Of a stretch of 19,695 bases of DNA, positions 960 through 11,735 are shown in pieces. The notes under the pieces were generated by a model. The model was not told the origin of the DNA, ran no database searches, and was given only the letters and a program-made list of their open reading frames with translations. The DNA comes from a virus (Duplodnaviria > Heunggongvirae > Uroviricota > Caudoviricetes), in IMG/VR virus record IMGVR_UViG_2700989272_000006, positions 1-19,695 of that record. One strand, 5' to 3'. How positions within the stretch are numbered: position 1 is the stretch's first letter; the number at the start of each line of letters is the position of its first letter. A program made the translations under genes and the position numbers.

Positions 960-1427
960 TCATCGAAGGCATTGCGTCCTGATATATTCCTGAAGCGTTC
1001 TCAGTGCTGTCTGGTCTCTGATGATTCCGTCCCGGATACCGAGAACGTTTCGTCCAGCAACTGGAGAGAGTTCGACGGTGGCATCATTGCCCATGCCGGA
1101 GGCGCTGGAGGTTTCGGCTGAGGATGGCACAGAGCATTTTCCTTTGACGAGCACCCGACCACCATTATCAAGCTTGCGCCGAAGAGCATCATTTTCAGCT
1201 TTCGCATCAGCCAACTCCTTCGTGTATTTAGCATCGAGTACATCAGCAGCACGCTGGCGTTGCTGCATGTCAGTAATGGTGGCGGTCGCCTGCTTCAGCT
1301 CACTGACTTTTTTATCACGCTGTTCTTTGTAGGCGATGGCGTTATCACGGTAATGATTGACCGCCCACGACAGGCAGACGATGATGCAGATAACCAGAGC
1401 ATAAATAATCGCGGCGACTCTGCTCAC
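960..1427 (-). CDS. Rz: Spanin inner-membrane subunit Rz (i-spanin)
   Basis: Translation ...[38 protein letters not shown]...[16 protein letters not shown]... is collinear with lambda Rz (N-terminal TM helix, coiled-coil body). Likely GTG start at 1427 overlapping the endolysin TGA stop (GTGA); the ORF-track start at 1442 is TTG. Confidence 0.85.
1001..1207 (-). CDS. Rz1: Spanin outer-membrane lipoprotein Rz1 (o-spanin), embedded in the +1 frame of Rz
   Basis: [21 protein letters not shown]... has a lipobox (VVGC) followed by a Pro-rich segment ([16 protein letters not shown]), as in lambda Rz1; AAGGAG SD 6 nt upstream of ATG at 1207; fully embedded within Rz. Confidence 0.75.
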
Positions 1428-1957
1428 TGATCTATCCCCCAACAGGCTAATGCGCTTTCCTGGTCACGACGAATAACCTGTCCATAGCAGTTATTTGAAC
1501 GTATGCGGCAATCGCGCCCACCATCTTTTATCCACCAGCGAATCGCCTCGCATGCACCCTTACGATCACCGGCATTCAGCCGCTTATAAAACGTCGACGG
1601 GAAACACTTACCGGGGCCAATGTTATAGGGACAAAATGACGCTATACCCGCTTTCTGTGGTTCGGTCAGTGGCACTTTAATATTGCGCTCCACCCATGCC
1701 AGCGCCTTATCCCGTTCAATGGCGTTAACCTGGTCGCATTTTTCCTTCGACAGTTTCATACCGGGAAAAACGGGTTTTCCATCCACCACCGTGGCACCCC
1801 GACAGATGGTCCAGATGCCGGAACCATCGCGGTATGCCGTTGTGTGGTTACCTTCTTTTTCATTCAGAAACTGGTCGAGAATATCAGGCGCAGGCGCACC
1901 GACGGCAATCAGTGCCAGAACGGCAGCCGACAGGCCGTATCTGATTTTTACGTTCAT
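1424..1957 (-). CDS. SAR endolysin (T4-lysozyme-like, GH24 muramidase) of phage 21 R type
   Basis: E-x8-D-x5-T catalytic pattern ([16 protein letters not shown]) typical of T4-type lysozymes; N-terminal weakly hydrophobic Gly/Ala-rich segment ([17 protein letters not shown]) consistent with a signal-anchor-release domain; sits downstream of a pinholin. Confidence 0.85.
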
Positions 1958-2062
1958 GGATATTTATCAGGATTTATCGGTTTCTGAACCCTGGATATGT
2001 TTATCTGTCCCGGCCTGTTGAATCAGGCAAGGAATAGTTAAATACAATAGAGAGGATTGTTT

Positions 2063-2335
2063 ATGGACAATAGCACCATTTCTCTACAGGAGTTGCTCGA
2101 CTGCATTTCCAAGCTTCGGGATGATGTAAATGCCCTTACTGTCGCATTTTCATATCTGGCATTCTCAATTCCCAAGGAACAAATGCAACCAACACTGGCA
2201 TCGCTCCAGCTTGAATCACTCAACCCCAAATGGTCCCAGCAACAACAAAATTCTTTCAAGTGGCTGGCGGTATTACTGGAAGAAAAATATGCTGGTGAAA
2301 TTACCATTTCGGCGGAGTCTTCAGAGAACCAGTAA
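2063..2335 (+). CDS. Hypothetical 90-aa protein, reverse-oriented inside the lysis cassette (candidate moron)
   Basis: ATG at 2063 preceded by AGAGAGGA 6 nt upstream; fills a 344-bp gap between the endolysin start and the DUF1327 gene stop that has no minus-strand gene; hydrophilic, Q-rich product (MDNSTISLQELLDCISKLRDDVNALT...). Coding status unverified. Confidence 0.3.
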   Translation: MDNSTISLQELLDCISKLRDDVNALTVAFSYLAFSIPKEQMQPTLASLQLESLNPKWSQQQQNSFKWLAVLLEEKYAGEITISAESSENQ

Positions 2336-2645
2336 TTCTTCCCGGTAGCTTTCCTTTGTAGGTTATCCACACATTCTGCGCCTCTAAAATTATGGGGCGC
2401 TTTTCCGGCGACAGCTCATCCCCTTCACATAACCCGGCAGCAACATCCAGGAAGACCTGTCTGATGCTCCTTCTGGCTGCTGCCTCATAAAACTCCAGCG
2501 CGGCACCTTCAACACGGTCCAGCGAGATGTCCAGGTCAAAAATTTCACCGTCAAAGCGGTTTTTGTCCCGTAACGCTAAAGTTACCGTAACTTTATTCTC
2601 AAAATTGCGGATCCCTTTCACAATCAGTTCATAGTTTTGAGTCAT
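2301..2645 (-). CDS. DUF1327-like protein (YdfR-like), lysis-cassette-associated
   Basis: 114-aa ORF with ATG at 2645 and GGAGAG SD; located between holin and endolysin, the position YdfR occupies in the E. coli Qin prophage. The family assignment is from memory. Confidence 0.55.
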   Translation of the reverse strand: MTQNYELIVKGIRNFENKVTVTLALRDKNRFDGEIFDLDISLDRVEGAALEFYEAAARRSIRQVFLDVAAGLCEGDELSPEKRPIILEAQNVWITYKGKLPGRITGSLKTPPKW

Positions 2646-2649
2646 TGAA

Positions 2650-2865
2650 TTACTCTCCCCGTGCAGCCTTACGCTTGTCTTCTTTAATCTTGAAATAAAG
2701 ATTTGTCAGATACGTCAGCAGGCCAAACACCAGACTACCCAGCACACCTATTGCCGCCCACTGTGAGGGCGTGACTTTATCGAGCAACTGTAAAAACCAG
2801 TACCCGGCACTACCTGCTGAGGTGCCATAGGCGACACCCGTTGTTAACTTATCCATGGATTTCAT
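2650..2865 (-). CDS. Pinholin, phage 21 S21-like class II holin with dual-start motif
   Basis: [71 protein letters not shown] is near-collinear with the S21 pinholin as I recall it (two TM segments, charged C-terminus); Met1/Met4 dual start (2865 and 2856); strong GAGGTGGGG SD. Confidence 0.85.
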
Positions 2866-2932
2866 AACCCCACCTCGCAGATGCGGGTGCTGTGTAATGG
2901 AAATAAAAAGGCCACCTGACGTGGACACCAGA

Positions 2933-3985
2933 TTATTTCCCCACCAGCTCGTTTATCTCTTTCACTGTCTGGTTAAACCGCTCTGACTCAAGCTCAACAC
3001 CTAAGGCCCGACGCCCCAGCGCCATTGCTGCTTTTATTGTGGAACCGGATCCCATAAAAAAATCAGCAACCAGATCACCAGGTCGACTACTGGCATTGAT
3101 TATTTGCCTGAGCATATCCGCCGGTTTCTCACACGGATGTTTACCCGGGTAGAACTGAACGGGTTTATGCATCCAGACATCGGTATAAGGCACGGAGACT
3201 GATACGGAGAAATAGCGCCGGAGAGATTTAAACTCATCCAGCAATTCAGAATATTTGCGATTCAGTGAATCATAAGATGCCACCAGCTGGTGGTGTGGTT
3301 GTTCCAGTTGTTGTTCCTGAAACTTCTCTGCCGCTATACGGGAAAACAGTGCCTGTAACTTCCGATAGTCAGCCTCATTCGGCAACTGCCACTGACTGGC
3401 ACCAAACCAGTGGGAAACCATATTTTTCTTACCTGTGGCTTCGGCAATTTGTTTTGCCGTTATACCCAGTTCGGCACGAGCATCCCTGAAATACGATATC
3501 AGCGGTGCCATTATGTGCTGTTTGAGTTCCCTTTCTTTTGCCGCATAGCCGTCACTTTTGCCGCGATATGGCCCCTGGTAATGTTCAGCAAACAGAACGC
3601 GCTCTGTGGCAGGAAAATATGCGCGCAGACTTTCTTTATTACACCCATTCCAACGTCCGGACGGCTTCGCCCAGATGATATGGTTAAGCACGTTGAAACG
3701 TTCACGCATCATGATCTCAATATCAGATGCCAGGCGATGCCCACAGAACAGGTAAAGGCTTCCGGCAGGTTTTAACACCCGCCAGAACTGGGCCAGACAG
3801 TGGTCCAGCCACTTAAGGTAATCTTCGTCCCCTTTCCACTGATTGTCCCAGCCGTTGGGTTTCACCTTGAAGTACGGCGGATCGGTAACAATCAGGTCAA
3901 TGGAATCATCAGGCAGGGACTGAATAAAATGCAGGCAATCAGCGTTGATTAAATCAGCACTGTTTATTTTTACAGTATTTTTCAT
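2933..3985 (-). CDS. DNA methyltransferase, beta-class amino-MTase (N6-adenine or N4-cytosine)
   Basis: N-terminal catalytic motif IV (IVTDPPYF) and C-terminal AdoMet-binding motif I (DFFMGSGST) in the circularly permuted beta-class order; 350 aa; no cognate restriction enzyme recognised adjacent. Confidence 0.85.
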
Positions 3986-4135
3986 GGATCAGTAAGCGTA
4001 ACTCTGGTAGGCTCACTCTGCTTTTGCGCTAAAGCAGTGGGCCGTGGTTCGCTTGTGACCAGTAAGCATGAGCGAATGGCTGGCAGGTGCTACCAACACC
4101 CACCAGCCGCCCATTTTCACAGCAGGAAACCGCCA

Positions 4136-4339
4136 TTACTGGCAGCGTCTGAATTTATTCCCGTACCCGCCGTTATCCTTCGCCAGACCCGCCAGAACTA
4201 ACTGAGTCAGTATTAACTGGCACCGGGCTTCGCTTACTCCGGTAGTTCTCGTCATCATGCGTGGCGTTACCCACTTGTCAGCAGGTAAGAAATGAAGGAC
4301 TGCGGCGGCGGTTTCTGTCATATCTTGCTGTTTTAGCAT
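4136..4339 (-). CDS. Small putative winged-helix DNA-binding protein (67-75 aa)
   Basis: ORF 4136..4363; internal ATG at 4339 has an AAGGGA SD 7 nt upstream; sequence (TETAAAVLHFLPADKWVTPRMMTRTTGVSEARCQLILTQLVLAGLAKDNGG) has a wHTH-like pattern. Small size makes the call tentative. Confidence 0.4.
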   Translation of the reverse strand: MLKQQDMTETAAAVLHFLPADKWVTPRMMTRTTGVSEARCQLILTQLVLAGLAKDNGGYGNKFRRCQ

Positions 4340-4460
4340 GTCTTTTTCCCTTCTGGTTAACATGACATACCAATAACTCTTGTCTAAAAATCCAGCAAGA
4401 TAAAAAGTCAGTATTCACGACCACCAGCGTGTTTACTGTACTGCACCAAGTTTACAGGTA

Positions 4461-4487
4461 CAAAAAACCCGCTCAGTGGCGGGTTTA
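4461..4487 (-). terminator. Rho-independent terminator downstream of the 205-aa gene
   Basis: On the minus strand: stem acccgc / gcgggt with 6-nt loop followed by TTTTTTG; located 130 bp after the stop of the 4616..5233 gene. Confidence 0.6.
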
Positions 4488-4615
4488 AGTTGTGTGGCGA
4501 AGTAACCACTCTTAACACACTAATAGCATTTTTGTTATAACACAAGTAGCTCATTCAGTATTTTTAGAATCTTGACTTTCTTAAGCACGGCGAACTCTGA
4601 ATACCAAACATAAAA

Positions 4616-5233
4616 TCAATTATCTTCCAGGCCGGATGCTATCAACGAAAGCCTCTCAAAAAACGCTGTAGCAGCCTTGTCCAAAGTTGAATAAGTACTG
4701 TATTCTCCGTGTTCGGGACCAACCACTACCCATGGTCGTCTTTTTGGGATTCGGGACTTCTCAGAAATCACTGTTCCAGATATACCAATATCAATTGTTA
4801 CACCTGTTATTATTTTCTCTTCATCTCTTTCCCTGAACTCAATTGCCATAAATGCCGTTTTTTTTCGTTTCCCGTTTTTAAAAAAATCAAATAAAGCAAA
4901 GCGATGCTCATTAAAATCAACACCCCATCGTCCTTCAGGATAAAGGGCATGAAAGTTGTCATTTACGCTCTGCATCGTCTCATAAGCTTTAACTTCTAAA
5001 TCTCCATAGTGCATAGATACCGCGCAGGAGTCACTGGGTAACTGTATTTTCCCAAGATTGAAAACCTTTACTGCTCCAGAACTATGGCATCTTGCCCGCA
5101 ATTTATCCCCATTTATACTAATCGGAGAAATATTCCTTAATGTTCCGGGCTGGCTCCCTCCTAAGTAAACGACTGTTAAAGATTGCTTATTTTCAATTGC
5201 ATCAACTAATACATGCTCTACATTTTTATCCAT
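4616..5233 (-). CDS. Hypothetical protein (205 aa), AT-rich moron immediately downstream of Q
   Basis: ATG at 5233 with GGGAGG SD 5 nt upstream (the ORF-track start at 5260 is upstream of the SD). Lower GC than flanking phage genes; own terminator. No domain confidently recognised; the N-terminal 65 aa (LTVVYLGGSQPGTLRNISPISINGDKLRARC...VKVFNLGKIQL) weakly resemble a WYL/SH3-like beta-barrel pattern. Confidence 0.65.
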   Translation of the reverse strand: MDKNVEHVLVDAIENKQSLTVVYLGGSQPGTLRNISPISINGDKLRARCHSSGAVKVFNLGKIQLPSDSCAVSMHYGDLEVKAYETMQSVNDNFHALYPEGRWGVDFNEHRFALFDFFKNGKRKKTAFMAIEFRERDEEKIITGVTIDIGISGTVISEKSRIPKRRPWVVVGPEHGEYSTYSTLDKAATAFFERLSLIASGLEDN

Positions 5234-5260
5234 AATAACCTCCCGATGAACAGGTATCAT

Positions 5261-5330
5261 CAGGAGGTTATAATAAAATATGATTATTTACTTTGATTGA
5301 ATTTATTACTATATGTAACAATCAATTTCT
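5261..5330 (-). promoter_or_regulatory. Candidate late promoter (pR-prime-like) region overlapping the Q 3' end / Q-205aa intergenic spacer
   Basis: AT-rich stretch with sigma70-like hexamers (e.g. TTGATT ... TAATAAA) directly downstream of Q, where lambdoid phages place pR-prime and qut. Exact -35/-10 not resolved. Confidence 0.25.
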
Positions 5331-5680
5331 AAAGATACCCCCAACATTGCCAGACAACCGTCAATAAACCCTTCAGCTTTCTGCAGTCTGATAACAACCT
5401 GATTAAGTGATATCCCCAGTTTTACCCCCAACGCCCGTAATGTAACCCCATACACATAATACATTTCCAGTAATTCGTATTGATACGGTTCCTTTTTCTT
5501 AAGAACTGTCATTGCAGAGCTAATGATCAGGCCATCGTCATCGCTACATTGCGGGCGGGATTTTACTTTCGAAGGAATTAATCCCTTAAAACCTGCAGCA
5601 ACAGATGACCATTCCACATCCTCGTGATTATTTGCCACCCATGCCCCCCAACGTTCAAGAACCATTTGAATATCACGCAT
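5309..5680 (-). CDS. Q: Late-gene antiterminator Q (short QuuD / 933W-type)
   Basis: MRDIQMVLERWGAWVANNHEDVEWSSVAAGFKGLIPSKVKSRPQC... matches the N-terminus of short Q antiterminators as I recall them; first ATG at 5680 with GGAGAAA SD; positioned immediately upstream of the lysis region. Confidence 0.75.
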   Translation of the reverse strand: MRDIQMVLERWGAWVANNHEDVEWSSVAAGFKGLIPSKVKSRPQCSDDDGLIISSAMTVLKKKEPYQYELLEMYYVYGVTLRALGVKLGISLNQVVIRLQKAEGFIDGCLAMLGVSLEIDCYI

Positions 5681-5697: not shown

Positions 5698-6693
5698 TCA
5701 GGCCAGCACGCCTATTGCCAGCGCACGATCGATAAAACGAAATATCAGCTCCAGCTGGGAGCCATACTTCTCTTCAAATGCCACGGTATCCGCATGCAGC
5801 TCGTCGTGATGCTTTCTGCACAAAGGCAACACAAAGAGGTCATGCGCTTTTGTACCCATTCCACCCTGACCGTGGCCTATCAGGTGGTGGGGATCATCAG
5901 CAGGCTTTCCACAACATGCACACGGCTGTGTCTTAACCCAGCGCGTGTACTTTTCATTAACCCAGCGGCGGCGTTTTGGGCGTAACATAAAAGACTCCGG
6001 CGACTCCGGATCCACTTTCAGCGCCAGCACCTTTTTCGCTTTATCCTGGATGATGCTGGTGGCAGGAACCGAAGGCACAAGGTCACTCTCCCGGGTGACA
6101 GACGGCACAACAGGTTTCGGTAATCTCAGCGCCTTACGGGCTGCGCTTTCAGGTAAGGCATCCGCCAGGTCATTACGAATCAGCCACCAGCACAGTTCCG
6201 GCATTGTCACGGCATGGTTATCATCAAAACCGAGATCCCGACGGACTACAGACAACACCCAGCGGGCACAGTTATCCGTTGCCATTGATTCCAGCCGTTC
6301 CGTGAACTGATCGCGCAGCTGGTTATCGCAGTGCCAGCACAGACGGATTGCGCCCGGAGCGTGTCGCATTGTGGTCATGTTCTCGCTGTGCCAGTCGGAA
6401 TGAGGCCACTGGCAGCCTTTTTCACGAAGTAACCAGCTTTCAAGACATTCCACGCCACCAGCACGACGGATCACTGCCTCATTGCGGAACACGGCCCGAA
6501 CGGCAGGATCATCCGCCAGCGGTTGTGATACCGCCGGAACGGCACCACTGGCGAAAGATGAATAACGTTCCGGCTCAGGCTCCAGCAGGACACGCCCCTG
6601 CATAAACAGGGGCATCAGCTCTGAACCTGGCCTGAACAATACGATCCCCATACGCGGGGCAATTTCAGGGGTCAGTAGTGCTCTCACGGTCAC
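5698..6693 (-). CDS. DUF968-like protein (YdfU-like) with C-terminal HNH/zinc-finger-like motif
   Basis: C-terminal CxxC ... HH ... H pattern (CACCGKPADDPHHLIGHGQGGMGTKAHDLFVLPLCRKHHDELH); occupies the YdfU position upstream of Q. Start uncertain (GTG 6693 or ATG 6651). Confidence 0.65.
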   Translation of the reverse strand: MTVRALLTPEIAPRMGIVLFRPGSELMPLFMQGRVLLEPEPERYSSFASGAVPAVSQPLADDPAVRAVFRNEAVIRRAGGVECLESWLLREKGCQWPHSDWHSENMTTMRHAPGAIRLCWHCDNQLRDQFTERLESMATDNCARWVLSVVRRDLGFDDNHAVTMPELCWWLIRNDLADALPESAARKALRLPKPVVPSVTRESDLVPSVPATSIIQDKAKKVLALKVDPESPESFMLRPKRRRWVNEKYTRWVKTQPCACCGKPADDPHHLIGHGQGGMGTKAHDLFVLPLCRKHHDELHADTVAFEEKYGSQLELIFRFIDRALAIGVLA

Positions 6694-7523: not shown

Positions 7524-7913
7524 TCAGGCAGCTGCACCCGCCGTTTTCTCGTACTTACTGATAGTGATCTCGACCTTCCCTTCCGGGATAACCGGTCCCC
7601 ACTCCACCAGCATTCTTTTCACCTGACTGTCGTCTTCCCACACCCCCGCGTGGGTCAGGGCGTCAAACAGCGCCTTGTTATAGTTGTCCAGATCGCGGAT
7701 CCTGTTATCCGGAGGAAACAACACGATCTCCACTGAAGCAGGTGCCGACGTTGGTTTCGGCAGACGACGTAACTGCTCAACTATTGCTGCACACGCCGCG
7801 CTCTGGAATTTGCGCCCCGCCGCGCTTATCAGGCTCTTACCTGCAAACGCCACTTTGTTGGGGTGTCGCCAGTACGTGTTCACGCTGGGCGGAAAAGGCA
7901 GTATTAGCTTCAT
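7524..7913 (-). CDS. rusA: Holliday junction resolvase RusA
   Basis: 129 aa; MKLILPFPPSVNTYWRH ... RIRDLDNYNKALFDALTHAGVWEDDSQV matches RusA family hallmarks (PxxxN..Y, catalytic DLDN). ATGA overlap with the upstream gene. Confidence 0.8.
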   Translation of the reverse strand: MKLILPFPPSVNTYWRHPNKVAFAGKSLISAAGRKFQSAACAAIVEQLRRLPKPTSAPASVEIVLFPPDNRIRDLDNYNKALFDALTHAGVWEDDSQVKRMLVEWGPVIPEGKVEITISKYEKTAGAAA

Positions 7914-8236
7914 ACTTTCAGGCCCCTCTCATGTAACCAGTGGGCTGCACGCAACCTGGCGTTCTCCTCACCGGCAAGCAGTGCGCGGATGATACCGACC
8001 GCCTCGCTGTCGTCGTCCTTCACCGCGGTATGAAGCGTGATGCCCCGGGCCACGCCACGCTTTATCGTGATGACGCCTTTTTTCTCCAGTGCGCGAAGAT
8101 GCTCCACCGCTGCATTCACTGAACGGTATCCCAGCATGGTTGCCACCTCCTGATTGGTTGGCGGGAAGCCACGTTCTTTCTGATAAGAAATCAGCATATC
8201 CAGCACCTGCTGCTGGCATTGAGTTAACGTCGTCAT
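7910..8236 (-). CDS. LexA DNA-binding-domain-only protein (winged helix, no S24 peptidase domain)
   Basis: MTTLTQCQQQVLDMLISYQKERGFPPTNQEVATMLGYRSVNAAVEHLRALEKKGVITIKRGVARGITL is collinear with the LexA N-terminal domain (LTxRQxEV ... GxPPT ... EHLKALxxKGxI); only 108 aa, so the catalytic domain is absent. Confidence 0.75.
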   Translation of the reverse strand: MTTLTQCQQQVLDMLISYQKERGFPPTNQEVATMLGYRSVNAAVEHLRALEKKGVITIKRGVARGITLHTAVKDDDSEAVGIIRALLAGEENARLRAAHWLHERGLKV

Positions 8237-8886
8237 GCCGCCATCTCCCTGACCAGTTTTTCTGCCTGCTGGCGAACCTGCGCCAGAAAGGCCTCACCAC
8301 ATGCCTCAAGTTCATCGCGCCCGATGTAGCTGATTGCCGGTCCCTTCCAGGTCTTGTCGAAAACAGCAATAGCACCAGCGAAGAAAGCGCCTGTCGGCAC
8401 CTGCTTCTCATCCTTCGGGATAAACCAGGCAGGCAGTTCAAAACCAATACGCCCGCGAATAAAAGCAATATGATCTGCATCTTCCGGCCACCACACTTCG
8501 CTGGTGGCAGCTTTGATCAGGAAAACATAGCGCCCGCCTTTATCACGCATGGCACTGGCATGCTTCATGATGTAACGCATGCCGGTGATGTATTGCCCCT
8601 CATGCTGACTGGCGCGGCTGTATGGGGGATTACCAAAGGCAGCACCTTTAAGCTCCGCAAGGCGTTCTGACCAGTCATGCGCCAGCGCGTTGTCTTCCGC
8701 CGTGTAATACGCAGCACATTTGGCGTTATCACCGTCAGTGAACAGATCCAGAACAAACGGGCCAAACAGGGTGTTAATTCCCCAGAAAATGTTGTCCGGC
8801 GTGCGCCACTGATCGCCCACTTCCTTCAGTTCATGGGCTGGTTTGTTCCGCAGTTCCGCCAGCGCCTGGCAATATTTATTACTCAT
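8233..8886 (-). CDS. Phage Dam-type DNA N6-adenine methyltransferase
   Basis: NPPY catalytic motif (FGNPPYS) in a phage N-6-adenine-MTase-like context; ATG at 8886 in a TAATG overlap with the upstream gene; ATGA overlap with the downstream gene. Confidence 0.8.
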   Translation of the reverse strand: MSNKYCQALAELRNKPAHELKEVGDQWRTPDNIFWGINTLFGPFVLDLFTDGDNAKCAAYYTAEDNALAHDWSERLAELKGAAFGNPPYSRASQHEGQYITGMRYIMKHASAMRDKGGRYVFLIKAATSEVWWPEDADHIAFIRGRIGFELPAWFIPKDEKQVPTGAFFAGAIAVFDKTWKGPAISYIGRDELEACGEAFLAQVRQQAEKLVREMAA

Positions 8887-10590: not shown

Positions 10591-11735
10591 TTGCGCCCCC
10601 TTACCTCTGAAGAGTTCAGCGACGAATGAATAAGACGGGCAAGAAATGCCGCATCGTTAATTCGGTCATACAGACTTACAGCCAGAGGTGATTCAGCTTT
10701 TTCCAGCATGGGATAAAGCTGCTGCAACCAGACCTGATGAATTGATGAAATGTAGGAATAGAGAACGCTGGCGTTATGTGCAACGTCGCTCGGTACAGCG
10801 GGCTTTGAAAGCTGTTTCTCCATCTGGTTAAAGGCATTGATGTATGCCTCTTTGAACTGGGCAGCACGTTTACCCGTGAAACCCATAGCAAGAAACGCAA
10901 AGCCGTCGCGGGTTATTTGATAGCAAGGTAGTTTGCGGCCTGTGCAATCGGTGTAATCACTCACCGAAAAATTGCGGGCAGTGAATGATGCGGAACATTC
11001 AAGCGTGCGGATCTTTTTCAGTACATCGTCATGACGTTTGGAGAAGAAGTTGGCAACAGCCAGGGATGAAGTAACAGCCTGACCATCAACGATGGCAATT
11101 TCAGGTTGAGTGAGGGTTGGGATCGTAGCCATGATGGCAGTCTCCGATAACAGTGAATTACCTTCACCACCGGAAACGCCAATTTCGCTGGTGGTGAACT
11201 GAACGGGGTTGGCGTAACCGGCGTTATCGGAAACCGGCGCACCTTTCGGTGCCCCCGTCCAGCCCACCATAATTTGGGTGTGCACAGACGCAGACGATAA
11301 AAAAGACGCTGGCGCGTCATATATCGCCGATAACATTTCCAGGACGCCAATCCCGACACCCGCTTTATAAGGTGCCTGAACAGTGTAACGTCCCGGAATG
11401 GCAGAATCAATGTGCTGGTGGTCCTTCACACTCAACAAAATCACGCCTGAATTTCCACAAAGGACTAAAGCACTCATGCGGGTAGTCTTTGCGAAGATAG
11501 ATAACGCGCTGTGTTTCTGGCTCCCAACGAATAACATGGACATAAAGCCCTCTTCCGTCACGAAACCAGCGGTTAAGTTCCTGCACAACTCGCCCCCCAC
11601 AGTCAGGTAAAGTTCTCTGTGGTTACTTACAGCCAGGTGATTTGGTAATCTGCATTCATGCCGTAACAACAGGTGTTCAGCGACGCTGACCACCAGCTGT
11701 TGCGACAAACGGTTATTTGCCGTTAAACTGTTCAT
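10587..11735 (-). CDS. Rha-domain phage regulatory protein with about 200-aa N-terminal extension of unknown function
   Basis: Residues about 205-300 (VTSSLAVANFFSKRHDDVLKKIRTLECS...YQITRDGFAFLAMGFTGKRAAQFKEAYINAF) match the Rha/ORF6-type pattern; ATG at 11735 with GGAGAAA SD and ATGA overlap with the upstream stop support the long form. The N-terminal half has atypical composition. Confidence 0.6.
   Translation of the reverse strand: MNSLTANNRLSQQLVVSVAEHLLLRHECRLPNHLAVSNHRELYLTVGGELCRNLTAGFVTEEGFMSMLFVGSQKHSALSIFAKTTRMSALVLCGNSGVILLSVKDHQHIDSAIPGRYTVQAPYKAGVGIGVLEMLSAIYDAPASFLSSASVHTQIMVGWTGAPKGAPVSDNAGYANPVQFTTSEIGVSGGEGNSLLSETAIMATIPTLTQPEIAIVDGQAVTSSLAVANFFSKRHDDVLKKIRTLECSASFTARNFSVSDYTDCTGRKLPCYQITRDGFAFLAMGFTGKRAAQFKEAYINAFNQMEKQLSKPAVPSDVAHNASVLYSYISSIHQVWLQQLYPMLEKAESPLAVSLYDRINDAAFLARLIHSSLNSSEVRGRK

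Follow-up and report, generated by a model that had tools for sequence, protein, structure and literature searches.

M.EcoGII and M.EcoGI are prophage-encoded methyltransferases (MTases) of E. coli O104:H4 C227-11 (Murray et al. 2018, PMC5778455). M.EcoGII methylates adenine non-specifically, is silent in the lysogen, is deleterious under constitutive expression, and is active when cloned alone (PMC5778455). Reconstructed ancestors of the M.EcoGII clade retain non-site-specific activity (PMC11551740).

A second point of reference is the late cassette of phage 21, which consists of Q21, pR', a sigma-dependent pause element (SDPE), tR', the S21 pinholin gene, and R21. In SfV (orf47/orf48), cdtI, mEp460, Ayreon, 720R4 and Stx2c phages, a small winged-helix gene and an MTase gene form a pair between the late terminator and either the holin gene or stx2AB. 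In SfV and 720R4 the order is Q, pR', tR', orf47, orf48 (MTase), S; in an Stx2c phage the pair is directly upstream of stx2AB.

The locus analysed here lies within a stretch of 19,695 nucleotides of viral DNA, hereafter the window. On its (-) strand, a Q21-type antiterminator gene is followed by an AT-rich gene for a 205-aa protein, a 67-aa winged-helix gene, a beta-class MTase gene and an S21-type holin gene (Table 1). As in phage 21, there is a Q21 homologue (matched by phmmer with the structures 6jnx and 6p18 of Q21, E 2.7e-10), a P21-type S holin, and an intrinsic terminator before the late genes; the Q protein and the terminator are features expected of a Q21-type cassette. The window differs from phage 21 in an extra 205-aa gene beside Q and in an extra winged-helix gene and MTase gene past tR'. 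The terminator and leader of the SfV-group phages are like those of the window, identical or nearly so, with a variant hairpin in cdtI. In contrast, these phages have a Q82-type Q of 250 aa or other cargo between Q and terminator, and none has the 205-aa gene.

Table 1. Features of the Q-to-lysis segment and the second MTase gene, in window coordinates.
Feature	Position	Strand	Basis
Holin, S21-type class II, EssD-like; first lysis gene	2650..2865	(-)	PF04971 (P21-type holin S) E 4e-35; RefSeq essD
Terminator-like hairpin, MTase stop codon to holin	2904..2933	(-)	Terminator scan
M.EcoGII-family beta-class N6-adenine DNA MTase, 350 aa, orphan	2933..3985	(-)	PF01555; M.EcoGII homology; RefSeq WP_000799656.1
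Conserved hairpin in the 150-nt spacer from winged-helix gene to MTase	4078..4108	(-)	RNA fold
Winged-helix protein, 67 aa (SfV orf47, phrog_331); first gene past tR'	4136..4339	(-)	AlphaFold2, Foldseek, Pfam
Intrinsic terminator, probable tR' (AAACCCGCCACTGAGCGGGTTTTTTG)	4461..4486	(-)	8-bp G+C-rich stem, then U tract
Candidate late promoter pR': -35 TTGTGT 4545-4540, 17-nt spacer, -10 TAGTGT 4522-4517	4517..4545	(-)	Inferred from conservation
205-aa protein: N-terminal WYL domain (~residues 1-65) and uncharacterised C-terminal alpha/beta domain; cargo linked to Q	4616..5233	(-)	
Hairpin covering the Shine-Dalgarno sequence (GGGAGG), immediately 5' of the 205-aa gene ATG	5236..5270	(-)	RNA fold
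Antiterminator Q, Q21 family, QuuD-like, 123 aa	5309..5680	(-)	PF06530 E 5e-48; RefSeq 'antiterminator Q family protein'
Phage Dam-type N6-adenine MTase; independent second MTase, early region	8233..8886	(-)	PF05869, TIGR01712; RefSeq WP_000066917.1

Taken together, the data suggest that the region belongs to the Q-to-lysis segment of a lambdoid prophage of E. coli, and that it holds three separately inherited elements and not one module, a reading to which we give a probability of about 0.78. Compared with a divergent allele set, L055, each of the four coding sequences shows purifying selection, with dN/dS values of 0.10 (MTase), 0.47 (winged-helix gene), 0.23 (205-aa gene), and 0.09 (Q). Scans of 2933-5233 for tRNA genes and Rfam families gave no matches. 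The locus is ordinary and already largely known; its WYL protein and its winged-helix protein are still uncharacterised.

An earlier note on this DNA had described a beta-class MTase, with DPPY preceding FxGxG, directly upstream of the holin gene, and the gene is confirmed there on the (-) strand. The protein scores 145.9 bits against PF01555 (N6_N4_Mtase; cut-off 26.7), and its DPPY (residues 35-38) and F-M-G-S-G (FxGxG, residues 310-314) stand in the order of the beta class. Its relatives in the PDB include M.RsrI, M.MboIIA, and CcrM. Over 349 aa it is 81% identical and 90% similar to M.EcoGII, with two gaps of one residue each. Both proteins (350 and 349 aa) share DPPY, a central four-helix target-recognition domain, and FxGxG; region 160-237 aligns without gaps, so that the homology includes the target-recognition domain. 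The remaining 19% of residues differ from M.EcoGII, and the window allele is nearer to Anc291, a reconstructed ancestor that is active (89% identical). M.EcoGII-type alleles, 95-99.6% identical to M.EcoGII, hold the same slot behind the winged-helix gene in five loci (L036, L055, L057, L060, and L061).

By these sequence comparisons, the MTase is a close relative of the non-specific N6-adenine orphan M.EcoGII, known from E. coli prophages. Its prophage location and the lack of any nuclease partner found linked to it agree with that clade. For the window allele, adenine methylation in any sequence context and silence in the lysogen would follow from the published M.EcoGII work; identity of 81% is no proof of non-specificity. 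The suggestion of an orphan anti-restriction MTase with a regulator finds support as regards the enzyme itself, an M.EcoGII-family member (81%) in a Q-dependent late operon. Two independent MTases had also been proposed for this prophage, correctly: the Dam-type enzyme of the early region matches PF05869 (E 1e-45; 155.7 bits, cut-off 28.1) and TIGR01712 (255.3 bits, cut-off 97).

The earlier note had further raised a compact type II restriction-modification (R-M) system, with the 205-aa protein as endonuclease, the winged-helix protein as controller (C) protein, and the MTase as protecting methylase. The three genes are indeed co-directional within 2.3 kb, and PADLOC assigns the MTase to MTase_II (E 2e-152), its best model being named 'Type II methyltransferase'. 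The AT-richness reported for the 205-aa gene was borne out as well (GC 37-39%, neighbours ~50%), and acquired genes are often AT-rich. The small DNA-binding protein upstream of an MTase also recalls C.PvuII, C.AhdI, and C.Esp1396I. The C proteins of type II R-M systems have a five-helix HTH fold of the Xre type. In contrast, the small protein of the window is a winged helix, has no linked endonuclease, and belongs to a family that also precedes genes other than MTases.

The distribution of the genes also argues against an R-M system. Among 5426 complete E. coli genomes, 52 have the 205-aa gene, and ~1160-1265 have the MTase, ~1100 of them without the 205-aa gene. The two are adjacent in 24 genomes, and 27 have the 205-aa gene only. 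In 26 of these 27 chromosomes the 205-aa gene is 100% identical and nothing matches the MTase probe; this megablast comparison used the 5' 600 nt (the N-terminal 200 codons) against chromosome records only, and a divergent or plasmid-borne MTase would escape it. The 205-aa protein combines a WYL domain with an alpha/beta domain, and searches for PD-(D/E)xK, HNH, GIY-YIG and PLD folds or motifs matched none. As the MTase also falls in a non-specific orphan clade and a terminator separates the 205-aa gene from the other two genes, the R-M reading is effectively refuted.

The 205-aa gene instead follows Q. Of 49 E. coli-type viral loci in IMG/VR, 48 include the upstream sequence; each of these 48 has the 205-aa gene behind Q, and in 47 the distance is a fixed 78-90 nt. 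Relative to L055, dS is the same for Q (0.80) and the 205-aa gene (0.82) and is 1.31 for the MTase. Downstream of the 205-aa gene, viral loci of IMG/VR have an MTase in 24 cases and an AraC-like gene in 13; in MS7163 and similar genomes, too, the MTase is replaced by an AraC-like gene. The AraC-like gene of MS7163 was considered as a diverged or truncated MTase and ruled out, as there is no similarity. The 205-aa gene is inherited together with Q and independently of the MTase. The proposal of a three-gene methylation-linked module does not survive these observations: the 205-aa gene tracks Q, a promoter-like block and a terminator intervene, and the winged-helix gene also stands before the AraC-like gene.

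The placement of the late promoter bears on the same division. The candidate pR' is conserved immediately before the terminator in four Q21-type phages with differing Q-proximal regions; in alignment it corresponds to the TTGCAT-N17-TAAGAT promoter of Q82-type phages. It is a weak match to consensus (3/6 and 3/6); a consensus promoter scan missed it and found no convincing pR'. Near the candidate, neither a Q-binding element nor an SDPE was identifiable, the former because the Q21 papers do not give the pR'21 sequence in their text. The terminator is identical or nearly identical in E. coli phages and prophage MS7163, with a variant hairpin in L055 and cdtI, and its equivalent in SfV and 720R4 is the sole terminator from Q/pR' to orf47. 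A conserved promoter-like block and a terminator thus probably separate the 205-aa gene from the late operon.

Alternatively, pR' could lie in the 75-nt spacer between Q and the 205-aa ORF. The 205-aa gene would then fall in the pR'-tR' leader, be constitutive in the lysogen, and act as a lysogenic-conversion gene sharing the promoter of the MTase. A Q cassette has been defined as Q followed directly by pR', the SDPE, and a terminator (bioRxiv 10.1101/651190), the AT-rich spacer contains promoter-like hexamers, and there is a single terminator between Q and the late genes. Against this placement, it is the TTG-N17-TAnnnT block with its ~30-nt leader that is kept just upstream of the terminator in Q21-type phages, and the same block aligns with the known-type promoter of Q82-type phages. 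In cdtI and PhiR40_1, moreover, the Q-adjacent stretch carries unrelated cargo on the opposite strand. We therefore consider a promoter beside Q doubtful, though it is the strongest of the alternatives, and retain the block upstream of the terminator as the candidate pR'.

The earlier description of a small winged-helix-like ORF is upheld by the predicted topology, the RefSeq start, and purifying selection. The start adopted is that of RefSeq (PGAP), giving 67 aa; an alternative of 75 aa from 4363 lacks a Shine-Dalgarno sequence. The AlphaFold2 model (pLDDT 77.6) has the order H1-beta-H2-H3-beta-hairpin of a winged helix, and Foldseek matches it to the winged-helix domains of IclR, TrmBL2, NsrR, MarR, and Zalpha. 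Pfam matches are sub-threshold and all to winged-helix families, among them TrmB in 19 of 23 members and DprA_WH in 14 of 23. The ORF is also kept in Salmonella, Pantoea, Kosakonia, and Klebsiella.

The position of this gene raises the possibility of a two-gene unit, in which the winged-helix protein would serve the toxic, non-specific MTase as its dedicated regulator or targeting factor, for example limiting or timing its synthesis, and the 205-aa gene would be unrelated. The MTase directly follows this gene in SfV, cdtI, mEp460, Ayreon, 720R4, PhiR40_1, Stx2c phages, and the RefSeq genomes examined, and this arrangement in E. coli makes a functional link between the two possible. Between them lies a conserved 150-nt spacer with a stable hairpin. 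Its sequence is unchanged in mEp460 and PhiR40_1 but shows partial similarity only in MS7163, where the presence of the stem was judged by eye from the alignment. No recognisable Shine-Dalgarno sequence precedes the MTase ATG, so translation may need a further factor. At the other end of the MTase gene, the annotations of SfV and Ayreon show a putative rho-independent terminator at the site equivalent to the terminator-like hairpin before the holin.

Other observations weigh against such a unit. The winged-helix family precedes the AraC-like regulator and not the MTase in at least 13 viral loci, with conserved N-terminus and recognition helix, and also in four E. coli chromosomes that were inspected directly (MS7163, FDAARGOS_144, CEA601S, and N53). 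The central part of the protein is mosaic, and its constraint is moderate (dN/dS as above). In addition, M.EcoGII needs no partner for activity when cloned, as noted at the outset. A dedicated two-gene unit therefore appears unlikely, and our best guess is that the winged-helix protein binds DNA as an accessory or regulator of late-phase cargo.

The 205-aa protein is probably encoded apart from the late operon. Its N-terminal WYL domain, an Sm/SH3-like beta-barrel, begins at about residue 1 without a preceding HTH, and 73-78 residues align with structures of the CapW/BrxR/DriD/PafBC type. In characterised relatives, this ligand-sensing fold binds ssDNA or RNA. In contrast to DriD, CapW, BrxR, and PafBC, the window protein lacks an N-terminal HTH, has no detected similarity to WCX, and has an unrelated C-terminal domain. 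As a stand-alone phage protein of 205 aa without HTH or WCX, it is not a WYL transcription factor of that class.

The family comprises ~490 clusters at 50% identity, is always stand-alone, and occupies cargo positions in unrelated phages. Around distant homologues in unrelated phage contexts, neither an MTase nor a nuclease was found next to the gene, nor was any neighbour constant, and longer members of the family gave no informative fusion partners. Only two neighbours recur around distant homologues: a Rha-like gene, found downstream in two unrelated contigs, and a cI-like repressor, found in two prophages of Vibrio. A profile search of the genome contigs with a 12-sequence alignment of the family returned one locus only.

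Immediately upstream of the gene, the hairpin over the ribosome-binding site folds at -25.8 kcal/mol (z -5.5), and 0 of 200 shuffles fold as well. It is retained in the divergent L055 allele although both arms carry substitutions. The hairpin probably gates translation of the 205-aa gene. As to function, it is a long shot that this uncharacterised, widespread phage family couples a DriD-like WYL domain sensing ssDNA or RNA to a C-terminal domain with a new function. The protein could serve in defence or counter-defence, for example as a decoy for the ssDNA signal by which host systems controlled by CapW or BrxR are de-repressed. Alternatively, it could modulate the late switch.

On the reading of three separately inherited elements, the following sequence of events is proposed. 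The MTase and winged-helix genes lie past the probable tR' and ahead of the holin gene. In the lysogen, transcription from pR' would halt at tR', leaving the MTase silent, which matters because the enzyme would be toxic when made constitutively. After induction, RNA polymerase modified by Q would pass tR'. The MTase would then be co-expressed with the lysis genes, and adenines of progeny phage DNA would be methylated before packaging. In the next host, DNA methylated in this way may be shielded from m6A-sensitive restriction systems. The winged-helix gene is a conserved first gene of the late leader, in front of differing cargo genes, and the 205-aa gene would be cargo inserted between Q and pR' and co-inherited with the present Q allele. 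The scheme takes homology and position from the locus itself, and timing and activity from the published M.EcoGII work; a literature search on expression of M.EcoGII-type genes upon induction gave nothing usable.

The analysis removes a false lead, since the locus is no new compact R-M system. In addition, the family of M.EcoGII, an enzyme in wide use as a reagent, is given a natural setting: lambdoid prophages carry the gene behind their late terminator, adjoining the lysis genes or, in Stx2c phages, the Shiga toxin genes. The MTase gene is carried by about one fifth of complete E. coli genomes. Its position behind the late terminator would explain the silence in lysogens, and hypermethylation of virion DNA is predicted from it. 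Two small conserved phage proteins, those of the winged-helix leader gene and of the WYL-domain gene, are left as cheap experimental targets.

The locus described in the earlier note, in which an AT-rich 205-aa gene, a small ORF and a beta-class methyltransferase (MTase) gene lie between Q and the lysis genes, is confirmed because the same 3.15-kb segment occurs (near-)full length, at 99.1-99.6% identity, in at least 15 complete E. coli chromosomes whose RefSeq annotation agrees with the gene calls of the window. The window comes from an E. coli lambdoid prophage and spans its early-to-late region; the minus strand carries the genes of interest. The MTase has the beta-class motif order read from the sequence (DPPY 35-38, FMGSG 310-314), the G+C content of the 205-aa gene is 37-39%, and the second, Dam-type MTase matches PF05869 and TIGR01712. 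Comparison with a divergent allele set shows purifying selection on each of the four coding sequences (dN/dS: MTase 0.10, small ORF 0.47, 205-aa ORF 0.23, Q 0.09).

Features of the window, with order of transcription
Feature	Position	Strand	Order
DUF968/HNH protein	5698-6693	-	first
Antiterminator Q	5309-5680	-	second
Shine-Dalgarno hairpin	5236-5270	-	
205-aa ORF	4616-5233	-	third
Predicted pR'	4517-4545		
Terminator	4461-4486	-	
67-aa (small) ORF	4136-4339	-	fourth
Small ORF-MTase spacer	3986-4135		
Hairpin within that spacer	4078-4108	-	
350-aa MTase	2933-3985	-	fifth
Lysis cassette	1424-2928	-	
S21-type holin	2650-2865	-	sixth
DUF1327 protein, lysozyme, Rz	downstream of holin	-	last
LexA-like 108-aa protein	7910-8236	-	
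Dam-type MTase	8233-8886		
Anti-repressor/Rha-like ORF, 382 aa	10587-11735		
C4 and isrK RNA matches	11187-11375	-	

The window has a phage 21-type lysis cassette, with an S21-family holin and a lysozyme whose hydrophobic N-terminus resembles a signal-anchor-release (SAR) endolysin; the DUF1327 gene sits between these two genes as an insertion. The DUF968 protein, encoded just 5' of Q, has an HNH-like C-terminus (PF16784, 26.9 bits). Its candidacy as a restriction partner of the MTase was rejected, related prophages carrying the DUF968 gene with or without a beta-class MTase.

By every testable measure of clade membership, sequence comparison identifies the window MTase as an M.EcoGII-family enzyme. 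It is 81% identical and 90% similar to M.EcoGII (reference sequence from the PMC11551740 supplement) over the full length, with two 1-residue gaps, and 89% identical to Anc291, a reconstructed ancestor of the M.EcoGII clade. Anc291 is an active DNA methyltransferase that also methylates RNA non-site-specifically (PMC11551740). M.EcoGII methylates adenine in any sequence context; its family is very large and resides in a well-defined E. coli prophage; the enzyme is silent in the lysogen, its constitutive expression is deleterious, and it was proposed to be turned on at induction to overcome restriction (Murray et al., PMC5778455). The window allele is common in its own right: of 5426 complete E. 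coli genomes, 1158-1265 carry the MTase gene (at least 99% identity in 619 records). M.EcoGII-type alleles (95-99.6% identity) occupy the identical slot in five related viral contigs (L036, L055, L057, L060, L061).

The MTase belongs to the late operon and lies behind the late terminator tR'. This placement follows from the conservation of the terminator and from a gene order shared with SfV and vB_EcoM-720R4: Q, a promoter, a ~65-nt leader, an intrinsic terminator, orf47, orf48, a second terminator-like hairpin and the holin. The promoter between Q and leader in those phages is good (TTGCAT-N17-TAAGAT), and the window locus matches orf47/orf48 of SfV and its relatives, orf47 corresponding to the small ORF and orf48 to the MTase. 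The terminator, AAACCCGCCACTGAGCGGGTTTTTTG, folds as expected and, with the following ~120 nt, is (near-)identical across E. coli phages and strain MS7163; in L055 the region persists but has diverged by substitution, and its terminator hairpin is a variant. Position behind tR' would explain the published silence of M.EcoGII in lysogens. The MTase would then be made with the lysis genes, at a stage where its toxicity has ceased to matter and progeny DNA can be methylated.

In an Stx2c-converting phage (Stx2c_EH0430, 2835-5877), the winged-helix small ORF (98.5% identical) and an M.EcoGII-family MTase allele (85%) lie 3' of Q and directly 5' of stx2A and stx2B. Because of this position, an MTase that is non-specific by homology would be co-transcribed with Shiga toxin in Stx2c phages. 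The cargo ORF of the same phage encodes 141 aa with a lipoprotein-like N-terminus. In mEp460 and Ayreon, near-exact copies of the late terminator flank a 138/141-aa cargo gene inserted in the interval from Q to the small ORF; these copies may be recombination joints for cargo swapping.

The 205-aa gene is inherited with Q, not with the MTase. It is present in 52 of the 5426 genomes, with identity never below 99%. A chimeric probe, joining the 5'-terminal 600 nt of the MTase gene (N-terminal 200 codons) to the 205-aa gene, finds both genes adjacent in 24 complete genomes and a full-length 205-aa gene (99.8-100% identity) not adjoining the MTase in 27; about 1100 genomes have the MTase only. In 26 of those 27, megablast of the whole chromosome record turns up no MTase match. 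Strains that lack the MTase, such as MS7163 and S88, have Q followed by the 205-aa gene, a variant of the small ORF, an AraC-like gene, three tRNAs and a NanS-p esterase. The AraC-like protein was considered as an MTase relative and rejected, being without any similarity to it. Among 52 IMG/VR loci, 49 are of E. coli type and 48 of these include upstream sequence; in all 48 a Q21-type Q precedes the 205-aa gene, at a fixed distance of 78-90 nt in 47. Downstream lies an MTase (24 loci) or the AraC-like gene (13), 12 loci being incomplete. A 72%-identical 205-aa allele is paired with an 85%-identical Q allele, and synonymous divergence is equal for the two genes (dS 0.82 and 0.80) and higher for the MTase (1.31). 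This co-travel argues against the three-gene methylation-linked module suggested earlier. The compact type II restriction-modification (R-M) alternative, with the 205-aa protein as nuclease, fails because 26 genomes that lack the methylase could not have kept its endonuclease unchanged. Every type II R-M hallmark tested failed at the locus, and within the reach of sequence comparison, with megablast of chromosome records for MTase absence, this alternative is refuted.

Profile comparison identifies the 205-aa protein as a WYL-domain protein rather than a nuclease. Exhaustive searching with HMMER yields 490 cluster representatives, most of which stand alone, at 185-210 aa. Of 60 family members, 25 are matched by the WYL Pfam model, and the family profile matches the DriD WYL domain in the PDB, with the common motif Y-x-G-G-S-x-P-G-x-x-R-E-x-x-P. 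The protein has a WYL domain, yet is not a WYL transcription factor. In the unrelated phage contexts examined, no MTase or nuclease adjoins the distant homologues. Examples (32-36% identity; contigs L008 6001-7667, L063 5998-7687, L012 4998-6652, L062 5111-6876) lie by tail genes or by a terminase gene, with a Rha-family gene 3' in these two unrelated contigs, or, in two Vibrio prophages, beside and convergent with a cI-like S24 repressor.

R-M controller proteins are Xre-type helical HTH proteins. The AlphaFold2 model of the small ORF (23 homologues, pLDDT 77.6) instead has H1-beta-H2-H3-beta-hairpin topology, and Foldseek matches it to winged-helix domains of IclR, TrmBL2, NsrR, MarR and Zalpha; given this difference in fold, the small ORF encodes a winged-helix protein and not the proposed controller (C protein). 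Sub-threshold Pfam matches in the family are to TrmB (19/23), DprA_WH (14/23) and MarR_2 (14/23), and some sources label homologues 'TrmB family'. The ORF is conserved in Salmonella, Pantoea, Kosakonia and Klebsiella, and the N-terminus (MLKQQDMTETA) and the recognition helix (RCQLILTQL) are invariant in the family. A specific link with the MTase, the two forming a two-gene unit, is possible; however, in many prophages the small-ORF family precedes a 235-aa AraC-like regulator with no MTase there. The small ORF is best described as a conserved first gene of the late leader. Between small ORF and MTase, the 150-nt spacer is conserved and folds strongly (-56.9 kcal/mol, z -2.9). It shows no Shine-Dalgarno sequence ahead of the MTase start codon, and by eye from the alignment its stem may be kept in MS7163 via G-U changes.

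Where the late promoter pR' lies decides whether the 205-aa gene is in the late operon. Q is homologous to Q21 of structures 6jnx and 6p18 (E 2.7e-10). Four Q21-type elements (window, L055, PhiR40_1, cdtI) share a block directly 5' of the terminator. All but cdtI, which lacks a good one, have a TTG-type -35; an A-rich 16-17-nt spacer comes next, then a TAnnnT -10 that all four possess, with GTTAAGAGTGGTTACTTCGCCACACA(A/G)CTTA 3' of it. The block also aligns with the Q82-type phage promoter. Because of this conservation, and because the Q-to-block stretch holds unrelated opposite-strand cargo in cdtI and PhiR40_1, pR' is placed in the block. The textbook Q cassette has pR' right after Q, here in the 75-nt Q-to-ORF spacer, and the block hexamers are weak and were missed by a promoter scan. 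On balance the odds are slightly better than even that pR' lies in the block and that the 205-aa gene, as cargo inserted after Q and before pR', falls outside the late operon. Whichever placement holds, the 205-aa gene is separated from the small ORF and MTase by a strong terminator. A 15-bp hairpin (-25.8 kcal/mol, z -5.5) buries the Shine-Dalgarno sequence of this gene and is kept in the divergent 72%-identical allele (L055 5960-5997) despite substitutions in both arms, which suggests translational gating of the 205-aa gene, or a weak terminator after Q.

Elsewhere in the window, Rfam C4 antisense RNA (82.8 bits) and isrK Hfq-binding RNA (61.5 bits) matches both fall inside the 5' part of the anti-repressor/Rha-like ORF as listed, an arrangement like P1/P7-type anti-repressor control, here inside a lambdoid prophage. 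The 108-aa protein labelled LexA family regulator in RefSeq is too short for an S24 peptidase domain, and so may be a LexA DNA-binding domain alone.

Taken as a whole, the locus is ordinary and largely already known. Its remaining novelty lies in two uncharacterised small proteins, the WYL family above all.
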